A stretch of DNA of 64,000 bases. Source: Tubulanus polymorphus (lineage: Eukaryota > Animalia > Nemertea). The position numbers were made by a program, and so were the translations under genes. Each line of letters begins with the position of its first letter. The stretch's first letter is position 1. Positions 28,260-46,600 of this stretch are shown here, piece after piece. The stretch spans positions 24,886,560-24,950,559 of the forward strand of contig NC_134027.1 of NCBI RefSeq assembly GCF_964204645.1, written 5' to 3'. A model generated the notes under the pieces. The model was given only the letters and a program-made list of their open reading frames with translations, did not search any database and was not told the DNA's origin.

Positions 28260-31200
28260 ATGTCAATAAACAAAAGGAGTCGGGTAAGAGAAGCTTTTTT
28301 ATCACGTGTATTAATCTGGGCCAGTTACAGTAGTAAATCATGACCGGGACCAGGCGCGGATCCAAAGGGCTCAGCTACCGAAACAATTTTTATTTTTTCT
28401 TGAGGAGTTTACTCAAGACAAAGCGGGCGAACGGTACTACATAATCGGTACAATATCATCTTATGTTTGGCCAAACAATATGCCGTATAGGCCCGCTATT
28501 ATAAGAGATTTTAGTCGGCAGTTTAACATTAACATTTTTATGATCCCCCTCCTGGAAAAAATCCTGGATCCGCGCCTGGGGACTGGTCCTGTAATTTACA
28601 AAGAGTATTTTACATAAGTGTATATTTAAAAAGTAAGCTAACATATCATCTTAAGTTAATTGATGATGATGTATTTTTTCGGTCAATCATTCACTTTCTG
28701 ATAAAGTTGTATCAAGCTCTATTTTCAAACCAGTTCAATGAGCAGTGATTTGCTGTTTTTTTTGTGTTCATCCAGGTTATTGGTATTTCGGTAGTGTTGA
28801 TATCGGTCATATTCTATTTAGCTGATCACACTGTTATCGGTGCGTATTAAACCATGTAAACTGGAATTAACTATGAAAGATTTGAAATCTACGTTCTTAG
28901 TTGATTACTCATCATCAACAATGAGCTACTCAGAAAAGTCGATGTTCATTCTATCTAGTAAACGCAGTTTTTCAATTATTTCACTGACTTTTAAACGTGG
29001 GGCCTTTTTGATCTAGGATAAAACTATTTTCATATTGCGTTAACTTTCCGTCCGTTTTCCGTCCGTAGACGCAATCCGGTATATTTTGAAAGTGCATGTT
29101 ATAGATATATGTTAATATATAAATATAAATATTATATATATATATATATATATATATATATATATACAATTTTCATCCTGGTTGTGTTGAGATAATTTCA
29201 TGTCCATAAAACAATCGTTTTGAAATTTCGTAGAAATGAGTCATTCTGTTGGCAAACAGTTTAGTTGAAATTACCAAATAAGGTAAAAATCTAGGTATCG
29301 TCCTCAACGCGGATGACAAATTGAATTGATATGAATAGGCCCGAACGTTCGAAAGTAAAAACAGAGCTTGGCAGAGTTTGTGGAAGAGCTTCAATAGAGC
29401 TTTAACTGGCTTATTAAATGATTATATCTTAATCAAGCTGTTATCATAGTTTACTTTGATTGCATTTTGTGTGTTAAGGGTTGACTGTGAGCATATTATT
29501 TTCTTTATTGCATTTCTCTTTTTTTCTTTTCTCTTTTGAGGGACCTGTTTTATACAAACTATTCCTTAGTTTCTACAGGCCCCTCCAGGTCTAATTTACT
29601 GTATTTTGTATTATGCTTTGTACACTATGCTGTAAATTATATTTGAAAAATAAAGTGTTCAAATCAAAAAACAGAGCTTTAGCAGAGCTATGAAGAATTT
29701 TGAATGTTAGATGAGAGTTCAGAATAAGCTCTCCGGTGGAGAATTTAAATAGATTGTTAGCTCCAGTTGAAAGAAAGATGCTGAAACATTAAGCGATACT
29801 GATATATCCTAAATGCTGACTTGTCCTTGGATTGTATACTTTATTGGTTGGATCATTCGTGCATCGAAATGTAGCGATGTTGAAGACGCTTCAGTGTTGA
29901 AGACGCTTCTACGGATTGTCTGTATCCTTTTTTGTGCCTGAGGTCTATTTTTGGCCTGAGTTTCGAGACCTGTAGCTTTCTAAGGGTTTGCCATGTTTCA
30001 TTAAAATTCGCAATGGTTATTATACTTATCAGATATTATCAGACATAAATAGTTTCAACGCGCAAAAACAAATCTCACCGCGTGCAAAAACGCTCAATAA
30101 ATAATGCGCAAAAACGGTGTAATTTGTGTCGAGGAGCCCAAATCGTCCACCCATAACATTGCGTGAAATCTGAATCGACTAAACTAAATGATTATTTGAG
30201 ACGATTTGAAAATGACTGCTCCATTTCATTTTGCCTTAATTCAAACAGAGGATTATACATTGACTATTTAGACCTAGTGCTTGCAATTATCAGGAGTCCG
30301 ACATTGCATAGATCCCCGTCGGATTACAGGGGATGAATGGTATAAATCATGTATGAAATACATGATTATATTTATGTTAACTATCATAAATGATAGTTAT
30401 CGACACAAAAACGCTAAGGGAACATGAATTGTTATTTTTTCATTGTAGAGTTTAATCTCAACTATTCTATTGGGTCCAGATATTTTAGAAGAACAGTGTT
30501 GCCATTGTTTTCATCATAATCATCATGTTTACGACTTTCAGAGCAGTTCATATTCACTCAGATTTATTCATGATTATACAAATCTTTGCCAGTTTTTTCC
30601 GACGAAAAGAACACGGTGATTAATCTAAATCAACCACTTACGTAAAATCGTTTCGTGTCTTGTTTAGGACAGCAGCAGAACTGTATAGACGCAGCGAATA
30701 CGAAACACACGACAGTTATAACACCAGCAGTCGTAAAACTAGGTGGCACCACTGTCGTCCAATGTCAGGTTTCACCACCCGGTAGAAATTTCTGCGGTTT
30801 CAGAATAACATTGAGTGGCCCTTCAGTGCAGTTTGCGTTTGATAAAACATACTGTCCTCGGGGAACTATCAGTGAATCCCGGTACACTGGACAATGTGAC
30901 GTCACAGTTGGACGTTATGGTATACGAATCGAGAGTGTACAGATGACTGATGCTGGAAGATGGCGATGTAACTACATGAGCTCTTACCCAAATAGTAGAA
31001 CAGTACTTACTGTAATAGGTGAGAATGAAAAGCAATTGAATAAAACTGAAATGTTTCCAAAAACGATTGAGTTGGCTGGGAGAATGTTGCTATTGTTGTC
31101 GTTATAATCATGTTTACGACTCTCATGACAGTTCTTCAACATTTATTCATGATTATGCCAATTTAATTTTCTTAATCATTGAATCTTTTTTGAATACCGT

Positions 31201-43631: not shown

Positions 43632-46600
43632 ATGTCAATAAACAAAAGGAGTCGGGTAAGAGAAGCTTTTTTATCACGTGTATTAATCTGGGCCAGTTAC
43701 AGTAGTAAATCATGACCGGGACCAGGCGCGGGTCCAAAGGGCTCAGCTACCAAAACAATTTTTATTTTTTCTTGAGGAGTTTACTCAAGACAAAGCGGGC
43801 GAACGGTACTACATAATCGGTACAATATCATCTTATGTTTGGCCAAACAATATGCCGTATAGGCCCGCTATTATTAGAGATTTTAGTCGGCAGTTTAACA
43901 TTAACATTTTTATGAACCCCTCCTGGAAAACATCCTTGATCCGCGCATGGGGACTGGTCCCGTAATTTACAAAGACTATTTTACATAAGTGTATATTTAA
44001 AAAGTAAGCTAACATATCATCTTAAGTTTATTGATGATGATGTATTTTTTCGGTCAATCATTCACTTTCTGATAAAGTTGTATCAAGCTCTATTTTCAAA
44101 CCAGTTCAATGAGCAGTGATTTGCTGTTTTTTTTTGTGTTCATCCAGGTTATTGGTATTTCGGTAGTGTTGATATCGGTCATATTCTATTTAGCTGACCA
44201 CACTGTTATCGGTGCGTATTAAACCATGTAAACTGGAATTAACTACGAAAGATTTGAAATCTACGTTCTTAGTTGATTACTCATCATCAACAATGAGCTA
44301 CTCAGAAAAGTCGATGTTCATTCTATCTAGTAAACGCAGTTTTTCAATTATTTCACTGACTTTTAAACGTGGGGCCTTTTTTGATCTAGGATAAAACTAT
44401 TTTCATATTGCGTTAACTTTCCGTCCGTTTTCCGTCCGTAGACGCAATCCAGTATATTTTTGAAAGTGCATGTTATAGATATATATTAATATATATATAT
44501 ATATATATATATATATATATATATATATATATATATATATATATATATATATATATATATATATATATATATATATATATATATATATATATATATATAT
44601 ATATATATATATATATATATATATATATATATATATATATATATATATATATATATATATATATATATATATATATATATATATGTATATATAAATTTTC
44701 ATCCTGGTTGTGTTGAGATAATTTCATGTCCATAAAACAATCGTTTTGAAATTTCGTAGAAATGAGTCATTCTGTTGGCAAACAGTTTAGTTGAAATTAC
44801 CAAATAAGGTAAAAATCTAGGTATCGTCCTCAACGCGGATGACAAATTGAATTGATATGAATAGGCCCGATCGTTCGAAAGTAAAAAAGTAAAAACAGCG
44901 CTTGGCAGAGTTTGTGGAAGAGCTTCAATAGAGCTTTAACAGATTTTTAGCAGAGCTATGAAGAATTTTGAATGTTAGATGAGAGTTCAGAATAAGCTCT
45001 CCGGTGGAGAATTTAAATAGATTGTTAGCTCCAGTTGAAAGAAAGATGCTGAAACATTAAGCGATACTGATATATCCTAAATGCTGACTTGTCCTTGGAT
45101 TGTATACTTTATTGGTTGGATCATTCGTGCATCGAAATGTAGCGATGTTGAAGACGCTTCAGTGTTGAAGACGCTTCTACGGATTGTCTGTATCCTTTTT
45201 TGTGCCTGAGGTCTATTTTTGGCCTGAGTTTCGAGACCTGTAGCTTTCTAAGGGTTTGCCATGTTTCATTAAAATTCGCAATGGTTATTATACTTATCAG
45301 ATATTATCAGACATAAATAGTTTCAACGCGCAAAAACAAATCTCACCGCGTGCAAAAACGCTCAATAAATAATGCGCAAAAACGGTGTAATTTGTGTCGA
45401 GGAGCCCAAATCGTCCACCCATAACATTGCGTGAAATCTGAATCGACTAAACTAAATGATTATTTGAGACGATTTGAAAATGACTGCTCCATTTCATTTT
45501 GCCTTAATTCAAACAGAGGATTATACATTGACTATTTAGACCTAGTGCTTGCAATTATCAGGAGTCCGACATTCCATAGATCCCCGTCGGATTACAGGGG
45601 ATGAATGGTATAAATCATGTATGAAATACATGATTATATCTATGTTAACTATCATAAATGATAGTTATTGACACAAAAACGCTAAGGGAACATGAATTGT
45701 TATTTTTTCATTGTAGAGTTTAATCTCAACTATTCTATTGGGTTCAGATATTTCAGAAGAACAGTGTTGCCATTGTTTTCATCATAATCATCATGTTTAC
45801 GACTTTCAGGGCAGTTCATATTCACTCAGATTTATTCATGATTATACAAATCTTTGCCAGTTTTTTCCGACGAAAAGAACACGGTGATTAAATCTAAATC
45901 AACCACTTACGTAACATCGTTTATTGTGTCTTGTTTAGGACAGCGGCGGAACTGTATAGACGCAGCGGATACGACACTCGCGACAGTTGCAACACCAGCA
46001 GTCGTAAAACTAGGTGGCACCACTATCGTACAATGTCAGGTTTCACCACCCAGTAGAAATTTCTGCGGTATTAGAATAACATTGAGTAGCCCCTCACGAC
46101 AGTTTGAGTTTGATAAGACAAACTGTCATCGTGAAACTATCACTAGATACACTGGACAATGTGACGTCACAGCTGGACGTTATGATTTACGTATCAATAA
46201 TGTACAGATGACTGATGCTGGAAGATGGTCATGTAACTACATGAACTCTTTCCCAAATAGTAAAACAGTACTTACTGTAATAGGTGAGAATGAAAAGCAA
46301 TTGAATAAAACTGAAATGTTTCCAAAAACGATTGAGTTGTCCGGGAGAATGTTGCTATTGTTGTCGTTATAATCATGTTTACGACTCTCATGACAGTTCT
46401 TCAACATTTATTCATGATTATGCCAATTTAATTTTCTTAATCATTGAATCTTTTTTGAATACCGCTTTGTATACTGAAGAAAAATGTGCTATTTCTACTT
46501 TCACATTTACACAGCACCACCCAGTGGACCAGTTCTAACATCTCAACCAAACACCGCCATCAACAACATCGTCACCGTACAGGAGAATTCACCATTAACA

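Follow-up and report, generated by a model that had tools for sequence, protein, structure and literature searches.

The receptor array

The window analysed here, a 64-kb stretch of the genome of the nemertean Tubulanus polymorphus, contains genes 5 and 7, two intact receptors with the order signal-V-I-I-TM-tail that match RefSeq proteins of this worm (Table 1). The nine-exon model of gene 5 translates exactly to P0018, with all introns GT-AG, and a second RefSeq isoform of gene 7, P0034, lacks V. The B-type gene 3 carries an intact V-I-TM ORF of 350 aa without Ig3.

Table 1. Genes, exons and repeats of the receptor array; positions are those of the window.
Feature	Position	Strand	Remarks
Gene 1 distant V domain	2405..2752	+	~50% identical to A type; RefSeq P0044
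Broken gene 2, first V exon (2a)	9524..9871	+	open frame; candidate exchange partner
Broken gene 2, second V exon (2b)	10110..10464	+	frameshifted; states of codons 9-29 in common with gene 7
B-type gene 3 V exon	14723..15073	+	gene 12412-17724
B-type gene 4 V exon	21924..22274	+	gene 19614-24952
Gene 5 (A-type, LOC141902495)	28260..33846	+	signal (2 exons)-V-I-I-TM-tail (3 exons), 446 aa
Direct repeat flanking V	30490..30583	+	imperfect copy of 31081-31162, upstream of A-type V exon
Gene 5 V exon	30668..31018	+	116 aa, six Cys, C strand without Trp
V-Ig2 intron, first 140 nt	31019..31158	+	1.4-4.3% diverged among A, B and gene-2 types
Gene 5 Ig2 exon	31250..31525	+	11 of 12 differences from gene 7 in 3' half
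Gene 5 Ig3 exon	32178..32465	+	divergence from gene 7 at intron level
Gene 5 TM exon	32542..32677	+	no residue changes relative to gene 7
B-type gene 6 V exon	38034..38384	+	gene 35734-41062; identical to gene 4 V exon
Gene 7 (A-type, LOC141902503)	43632..49105	+	444 aa; model translates exactly to RefSeq P0043
Gene 7 V exon	45939..46283	+	114 aa
Gene 7 Ig2 exon	46515..46790	+	

Against the Pfam V-set model, the distal domain scores 26.2 bits in gene 7, 30.0 in B4 and 23.7 in gene 5, the curated cut-off being 26. V agrees with the eight-residue V-set set used in PMC9546547, which includes the B-F cysteines, an Arg before strand D, the Asp of the E-F motif and a hydrophobic core residue: C32, C100, D94 and I87 are invariant wherever an alignment row covers the position, both genes have R71, and Trp98 occupies the usual Tyr position. 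No strand-C Trp was found between C32 and C62 in any alignment row; since Alr domains likewise lack this residue, the fold call does not depend on it. The full structural model predicts strands A', B, C, C', D, E, F and G without C'', at a pLDDT of ~56-85 in V, whereas a V-only model places a C''-like strand at 61-64 with a mean pLDDT of only 52, which is too weak to stand alone. The best fold matches to the model were the three-Ig ectodomains of IgLON, DIP and nectin proteins, among them the DIP-eta chain (Z 15.5, rmsd 3.5, 282 aligned) and OPCML (Z 15.1, rmsd 4.3, 261 aligned). With many tied rows at 17-22% identity, these point to a common three-Ig arrangement and are no evidence of family or function.

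In genes 5 and 7, Ig3 is followed by a short stalk and the TM segment with no Fn3-like spacer; PF00041 is present in some larger paralogs. The tails of genes 5, 7 and 1 contain neither ITIM nor ITAM ([ILVS]xYxx[ILV]; YxxL/I-x6-12-YxxL/I). They carry IYGN and a terminal YEEI, putative motifs that we take to fit Grb2- and Src-type SH2 preferences. A profile search over 1.84 billion representatives returned close relatives of the V domain in Tubulanus polymorphus only; the profile included Ig2 columns, and matches below the top nine were generic Ig and were set aside. Neither a CEACAM nor an Alr was among the named sequence matches, and the search for short V-only proteins returned one partial paralog. 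We found no papers on this receptor family, and a review of the invertebrate IgSF held no mention of 'nemert'.

Divergence between genes 5 and 7

Aligned over 345 nucleotides, the two V exons show 39 differences (11.3%) and a 6-nt gap, against 62 of 3,972 (1.56%) over all eight introns (Fisher p=3e-18). At the protein level this amounts to 26 residue changes and a two-residue gap, spread across V without restriction to one face. Ig2 is also above the introns (12 of 276 nt, p=0.003), with seven residues changed within the exon and an eighth in the junction codon. Ig3 differs at 4 of 288 nt and three residues (p=1.0 when compared with a preliminary set of introns, 53/3,542, which also supplied the intron rate for the silent and replacement counts of V below), the TM exon at 1 of 136 nt and no residue, and the V-Ig2 intron at 4 of 231. 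An earlier note on this DNA, aligned by hand, had given about 26 substitutions and a 2-aa deletion in V, about eight residue changes in Ig2, three in Ig3 and none in TM, with about 4 of 231 nt in the V-Ig2 intron, and had placed V far above its introns; these counts hold on a proper alignment. It had also called the B-type V exons nearly invariant, which they are: B3 differs from B4 and B6 by a single base (G/C, Gly/Ala).

Divergence in V is almost as high at silent as at replacement sites (pS 0.106, pN 0.117), and the silent sites stand about 7-fold above the intron rate; nine silent changes are observed where 1.3 would be expected at that rate (P=7e-6), and 30 replacement changes where ~4 would be. 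The earlier note had overlooked this raised silent divergence. The 30 replacements speak for positive selection on point mutations that arose after a recent duplication, but as the sole cause it is insufficient because the silent sites are raised as well; the silent excess largely refutes it, the mosaic signal described below also opposes it, and we find it scarcely credible as the whole explanation.

Probable exchange of the V exon with paralogs

The five V exons of the window form a mosaic by the PHI test (p=0.0002). When a single site was drawn from each codon, all 20 of 20 draws gave p=0.002-0.029. Fifteen of the 39 differing sites vary among B4, 2a and 2b, and both A letters are found there at 14 (15 with a codon alignment), whereas simulation without exchange averaged 6-7 sites of this kind, and the probability of 14 or more was 0.000-0.037 in eight settings. 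The sites in common with window paralogs hold six of the nine silent changes; the 22 window-private sites comprise 20 replacement and two silent changes, against 4.0 and 1.3 expected.

Paralogs outside the window were compared as protein only. Both states occur among 18 other paralogs at 17 of 28 differing columns, many window-private replacements reappear in paralogs beyond the window, and P0011, P0015, P0017 and P0033 are gapped in the region where gene 7 is. In Ig2, paralogs hold both states for five of the seven changed residues. Set against all 18 paralogs, only ten residue changes stay private, where 4.0 would be expected (P=0.008), and these could come from unsampled donors. The V of gene 7 is equally close to that of B4 (79%) and that of gene 5 (77%).

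A Sawyer-type longest-run test on ten pairs of window V exons gave nothing significant after correction (best, gene 7/2b, p=0.04 uncorrected) and identified no single donor or tract for the V of gene 5 or 7. The DNA tree of the V exons groups genes 5 and 7; in the protein tree of the V domains, with three partial rows excluded and 11 of 14 inner branches open, this clade was neither recovered nor rejected (AU p=0.36). Protein-level PHI was weak: 16 rows gave p=0.015-0.02 for k=3-5 and 0.69 for k=10, and 19 rows gave no significance.

The PHI test, the states in common with paralogs and the simulation support an exchange limited to the exon. Of the two processes that had been proposed for V at the outset, conversion is thus supported and diversifying selection only indirectly so. 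The distal-to-proximal gradient, which the earlier note had linked to a ligand-binding domain, need not reflect ligand binding, as the supply of exchangeable paralogous exons would follow the same order.

A different history would make genes 5 and 7 an old pair homogenised by mutual conversion while selection shielded V, leaving a divergence peak like that of the red and green opsins, for which the accessible part of PMC3924837 describes such a model. As here, one opsin exon is divergent and its flanking introns are alike, but the opsins are a two-gene system with a few fixed sites, whereas the worm exon has states common to many paralogs. Homogenisation is active in the array: starting with the V exon, B4 and B6 are free of differences in six successive 250-nt windows, and they differ elsewhere, and V exons of the A, B and gene-2 types are 11-19% apart, against 1.4-4.3% in the next 140 nt of intron. 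The grouping of genes 5 and 7 in the DNA tree agrees with this history. Against it, the simulations followed exactly this history without exchange with other paralogs and rarely gave the 14 common sites, at the probabilities stated above; a PHI p as low as the observed one came up in 0-1.3% of runs. In addition, B3, B4 and B6 are overall ~1.5-2% apart, similar to the A introns, which fits a single recent duplication round. We consider the old pair unlikely.

Copy number and the allele question

It had also been suggested that the two units might be alleles of one locus assembled in tandem. The size of the intron divergence would suit alleles, and one other sample seems to be one-copy. In run X1, whose five listed single-copy pieces show no difference from the window, contigs over the introns common to genes 5 and 7 reach a depth of 49-59, about twice the median of 28 for single-copy bins, with the proviso that the depth of a contig does not give a true copy number. 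The same run contains a third V start, attached to an A-type intron and with a depth of 15.8, where gene-5-identical pieces have 19-20, and genes 5 and 7 have 3' flanks of different type. In run X5, A-gene depth is 8.2 against 8.9 in single-copy bins, or ~1 A copy per haploid set; its V has no marker letters of gene 5 or gene 7 and matches neither, and its introns mix gene-5, gene-7 and new letters, all at a low depth of ~8-9 reads, with 3-4 at the novel V sites. We discount the tandem mis-assembly because of the sequencing depth in the two samples, and the artefact appears very improbable. In one sample the data argue for genuinely duplicated genes, and in another for one copy whose V is a third version.

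Former alleles may still be the source of the pair. An origin in two old balanced alleles brought onto one chromosome by unequal crossing-over, with recombination levelling the introns and V holding deep allelic lineages, is possible and compatible with exchange among paralogs. The single-copy depth of X5, its mixed introns and its markerless V would suit such lineages, if at the few reads given above; the introns, at 1.6%, diverge by an amount near the 0.8% of run X2 (12 of 1,464 nt across four listed single-copy pieces), and the turn of the gene 5 3' end to B-like sequence near 33790 could mark the crossover. Balanced alleles alone leave the states in common with B and gene-2 exons unaccounted for, and as a full explanation we consider them unlikely.

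Possible selection on V

The pairwise dN/dS of the gene 5 and 7 V exons, which the earlier note had proposed as a check, is 1.1-1.2 and not significantly above 1. On a star tree of five V exons, two of them from broken gene 2, M2a improved on M1a (LRT 18.0; omega ~4 for 19% of sites); the outcome was significant with 5-6 exons and not with the three exons of intact genes (p=0.60). Recombination inflates site-model tests for positive selection. The replacement share of the private sites is borderline above the site share (p=0.064). Across the family, entropy is 1.09 bits in the GFCC' strands and 0.45 in the BED strands (p=0.002; strands from the model), so that V variation is concentrated on the predicted GFCC' face (strands C, C', F and G).

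Exchange could instead be neutral, with V a conversion sink under relaxed constraint and no selection for diversity; a pair dN/dS near 1, a site test without significance on intact exons and the RefSeq isoform of gene 7 that skips V agree with this. But the 19 V domains conserve every one of the six cysteines as well as the core, while the outward positions vary, 20 of the 22 window-private changes are replacements, and both frames are intact; we hold such neutral exchange to be decidedly unlikely. Diversifying selection on V has indirect support.

Comparison with known systems

The closest parallel is CEACAM1 of the bonobo, which in the accessible part of PMC8860441 differs from its orthologs at ~20% of N-domain sites and ~2% elsewhere; it has no single donor there, and repeated conversion among paralogous IgV domains is the explanation given. 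The ribbon worm V likewise differs at 23% of residues, the rest at ~5%, with paralog states as a patchwork; here too the N-terminal domain is far more divergent than the rest and is mosaic with paralogs. Unlike the CEACAM orthologs, the worm sequences compared are tandem copies within one genome, and primate CEACAM1/3/5/6 have known adhesin ligands and measured binding in that source.

The likeness to Hydractinia Alr polymorphism drawn in the earlier note holds as an analogy only. In the parts of PMC9546547 and PMC8282982 available, Alr domain 1 has no B-F cysteines and an Fn3-like spacer precedes the TM segment; the worm V has both cysteines and four more, and genes 5 and 7 have no such spacer, which speaks against membership of the Alr family. 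Neither tail has an ITAM or ITIM. The Fester family of Botryllus and its co-receptors are, in the accessible part of PMC12582321, likewise a lineage-restricted Ig family with tyrosine motifs, copy-number variation between haplotypes and intergenic recombination; Botryllus differs in its paired receptor/co-receptor genes, sushi domains and known allorecognition role, none of which was seen in the worm array. As regards such a role in the worm itself, we know of no fusion-rejection phenotype in Tubulanus polymorphus.

Interpretation

We think it probable that the pattern arose by short-tract exchange among ~20 lineage-specific V paralogs combined with diversifying selection, much as the N domains of CEACAMs are shuffled in primates. 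The other A copy would be the sole homologous partner of the A-specific introns; as these lack other partners, their divergence would reflect the young age of the pair. V, and to a lesser degree Ig2, would import old differences from paralogs, while Ig3 and TM, having few exchange partners, would remain at the intron level. New replacement changes may additionally be favoured by selection. In short, the V exon likely trades short pieces with its sister genes, and new versions are likely favoured.

V may bind a variable partner, with a signal running through the two tail tyrosines. For that partner, microbial or parasite surfaces seem the most likely, with somewhat better than even chances, and self or conspecific cell-surface proteins would otherwise come into question. 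A bolder and rather improbable extension is that the array belongs to a dedicated complex of variable receptors in a solitary spiralian. There, an exchangeable V cassette would be templated onto many stalks and tyrosine-bearing tails, giving each individual, perhaps each cell lineage, its repertoire. The cassette would lie between conserved intron blocks, backed by broken donors such as gene 2; the stalks would have 0 to ~8 additional Ig domains, with Fn3 in some and not in others, and the tails would be of several types.

The principle of exchange is already known, and the pattern has parallels in recognition receptors of humans and cnidarians, so the novelty is confined to the lineage and the clean contrast. 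If the reading is right, the gene 5 and 7 pair is a natural experiment in which stalk and tail are the same and V is different, and a ribbon worm would have arrived independently at receptor diversification in the style of CEACAM and Alr.

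Receptor array and gene family

Seven genes of a single Ig receptor family stand in tandem in the first 50 kb of the window. The translated nine-exon models of the A-type genes 5 and 7 reproduce exactly the RefSeq proteins P0018 (446 aa) and P0043 (444 aa), with the order signal, V, two I-type domains, transmembrane segment (TM) and two-tyrosine tail. The gene 5 V exon is a 100% match to the protein of LOC141902495 (NCBI name) of Tubulanus polymorphus, a nemertean, and RefSeq also lists a V-skipping isoform of gene 7 (P0034). The three B-gene products were absent among the family proteins returned by one protein search. 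Protein searches added 14 other distinct V domains, three of them partial, with 66-80% identity to gene 5; they are encoded on the window's own 27.8-Mb contig or on another of 16.5 Mb, in proteins of very different stalk length. When 1.84 billion representatives were searched with a profile, strong matches were confined to the same family proteins, and fold searches on the receptor model gave generic three-Ig matches only. Outside the window, the family proteins P0002-P0016 combine this V and Ig2 with stalks of up to about eight more Ig domains plus Fn3 and with three or more tail types, some of which bear ITIM- or ITSM-like motifs. Searches of mainly open-access literature found no paper on the Tubulanus V-receptor family.

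Features of the window (window coordinates)
Feature	Position	Remarks
Broken gene 2 region	9100-11000	Tandem V exons, second frameshifted; truncated A-like Ig3
B-type gene 3	12412-17724	Intact 350-aa frame, without Ig3
B-type gene 4	19614-24952	Intact 350-aa frame, without Ig3
B-type gene 6	35734-41062	Intact 350-aa frame, without Ig3
A-type gene 5	28260-33846	
A-type gene 7	43632-49105	
Fragment upstream of both A genes	27330-28100, 42600-43400	Similar to the terminal part of a LINE element; no Pfam match
Gene 5 3' end	33790-34900	B-like within last exon
Gene 7 3' end	49040-50230	Matches that of gene 1
V read-through block	31019-31107, 46284-46372, 15074-15162, 9872-9960, 22275-22471, 38385-38581	Frame continues past V
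High-copy repeat	about 52280-52630	
M13 peptidase (neprilysin-type) gene	54436-60812	Downstream; exons with weak Pfam matches

Divergence of genes 5 and 7

Genes 5 and 7 differ at 39/345 nt in the V exon, 12/276 in Ig2, 4/288 in Ig3 and 1/136 in TM, against 4/231 in the V-Ig2 intron and 62/3,972 in the introns together; the exon and intron counts of the earlier note were all borne out by the alignment, as was its near-invariance of the B-type V exons, which have a single-base difference among the three. Intron 8 diverges by 3.8% and the remaining introns by 1-2%, like the V-Ig2 intron. The contrast of V with the introns is a real feature (p=3e-18), and the peak stops at the V exon borders; a divergence-peak model is described for opsins in PMC3924837.

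Between the two V exons pN is 0.117 and pS 0.106, and dN/dS of 1.10-1.23 carries no significance. V has nine silent changes where the intron rate predicts 1.3 (P=7e-6), which argues that the history of the V exons reaches further back than that of the surrounding introns. Selection alone as the cause of the divergence is largely ruled out by this silent excess and a dN/dS near 1. Support for some role of selection comes from a split of the 39 sites by codon alignment against window paralogs: 15 were common to them (9 replacement, 6 silent), 22 were private within the window (20 replacement, 2 silent; 4.0 and 1.3 expected at the intron rate) and 2 fell in another class. When all 18 paralogs are taken into account, only 10 residue changes remain private (P=0.008), and these could be explained by unsampled donors.

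The site test M1a/M2a, run on a star tree, gave an LRT of 18.0 for five V exons (omega about 4 at 19% of sites), 19.2 for six and 1.0 for the three intact ones only. The family columns with the highest variability are found in or next to strands C, C', F and G and in the C''-D loop. Entropy averages 1.09 bits on GFCC' and 0.45 on BED (p=0.002; strands from modest-confidence models). The GFCC' face is the ligand-binding side in many IgV receptors. The gene 5/7 differences themselves are scattered across the whole V domain. In Alr2 domain 1, selected sites sit on the GFCC' face, according to PMC8282982.

Probable exchange among V exons

The V exons are mosaic. Over five window exons (5, 7, B4, and 2a and 2b, the first and second V exons of gene 2), neighbouring sites are more compatible than by chance (PHI, p=0.0002; p=0.002-0.029 with one site per codon). 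B4, 2a and 2b vary at 15 of the 39 sites, with both A letters present at 14 of those; histories simulated along the fitted tree, with variable rates but without exchange, gave a mean of 6-7 shared sites (P=0.000-0.037 for the observed number), and a PHI p as low as observed in 0-1.3% of cases. Gene 7 V protein is 77% identical to gene 5 and 79% to B4; at the DNA level genes 5 and 7 remain the closest V pair (0.113 vs 0.128). Both states occur among 18 paralogs at 17/28 differing protein columns; in four paralogs a gap falls in the region of gene 7's gap. Three results speak against exchange: the tract test was significant for none of the window V exon pairs after correction, protein-level PHI was weak across V paralogs, and the V protein tree was almost a star, the 5+7 clade being neither recovered nor rejected.

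Eleven of the 12 Ig2 differences lie in the 3' half of the exon, and at 5/7 changed Ig2 residues both states occur in paralogs. Because V and Ig2 are found in nearly all full-length family members, and a close Ig3 or TM exon in few, the distal-to-proximal gradient would also follow the availability of exchange partners.

Homogenisation and crossing-over

In the first 140 nt after V, the A, B and gene-2 types diverge by only 1.4-4.3%, versus 11-19% in V exons and 22-39% in pre-V introns. B4 and B6 are identical for about 1.5 kb starting at the V exon and different elsewhere; in the B genes, contrary to the A pair, the V-Ig2 region is more uniform than its flanks. The conserved block and the B4/B6 identity indicate that homogenisation is also active in the array, which makes the V-Ig2 intron alone unsafe as a clock. 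With homogenisation seen array-wide, after V and in B4/B6, the model of genes 5 and 7 as an old pair is still a live rival to short-tract exchange. The 3' ends of gene 5 (B-like) and gene 7 (gene 1-like) are marks of unequal crossing-over.

The V frame stays open for about 29 residues within the conserved intron block, the last of which form a short hydrophobic stretch; a 1-nt insertion prolongs it into a longer hydrophobic run in B4 and B6. Intron retention could yield V-only products, which might be the reason for the conservation of the block.

Copy number

X1 (assembled contigs) and X5 (raw reads) are sequencing runs of two samples; the gene 2 V-V junction is present in X5 reads and one X1 contig. 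X1 is not independent of the assembly, because its five listed single-copy pieces are identical to the window. Over introns common to genes 5 and 7 its contigs have depths of 49-59 versus a single-copy bin median of 28, V pieces identical to gene 5 have 19-20, and a third V start on an A-type intron, mixing letters of both genes, has 15.8; contig depth does not equal copy number, and chimeras are possible among short contigs, but three or four A copies in this sample is the simplest reading.

X5 would carry about one A copy per haploid set, because its A-gene depth is 8.2 versus 8.9 in single-copy bins. Its depth on gene 5 is 1-3 at 30820-30879 versus 9-14 in the upstream intron. With paralog reads included, X5 is without the gene 5 letter at 30697 (12/12 reads differ) and the gene 7 letter at 46025 (12/12), and nearly lacks the gene 5 letter at 30908 (22/23); letters found in no window copy occur in 3-4 reads. 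These data, at thin coverage, suggest that copy number varies and that V exists in a third version.

Proposed mechanism and comparison with known systems

Conversion or unequal crossing-over would carry short V tracts between paralogs, with pairing perhaps seeded by the intron block in common and by a direct repeat that flanks V, and selection would retain new V versions. Bonobo CEACAM1 is the closest case (PMC8860441), the Botryllus Fester family is an invertebrate parallel (PMC12582321), and polymorphic transmembrane clusters are reported from snails (PMC7494358). Alr (PMC9546547, PMC8282982) is an invertebrate parallel only: the Alr type had been suggested earlier, and none of the defining Alr features for which we looked was found. 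The V domain may read a variable partner, and the tail may signal via the tyrosines of IYGN and terminal YEEI, which by pattern are neither ITIM nor ITAM. By analogy with CEACAM, we lean slightly towards a microbial or parasite ligand for V.
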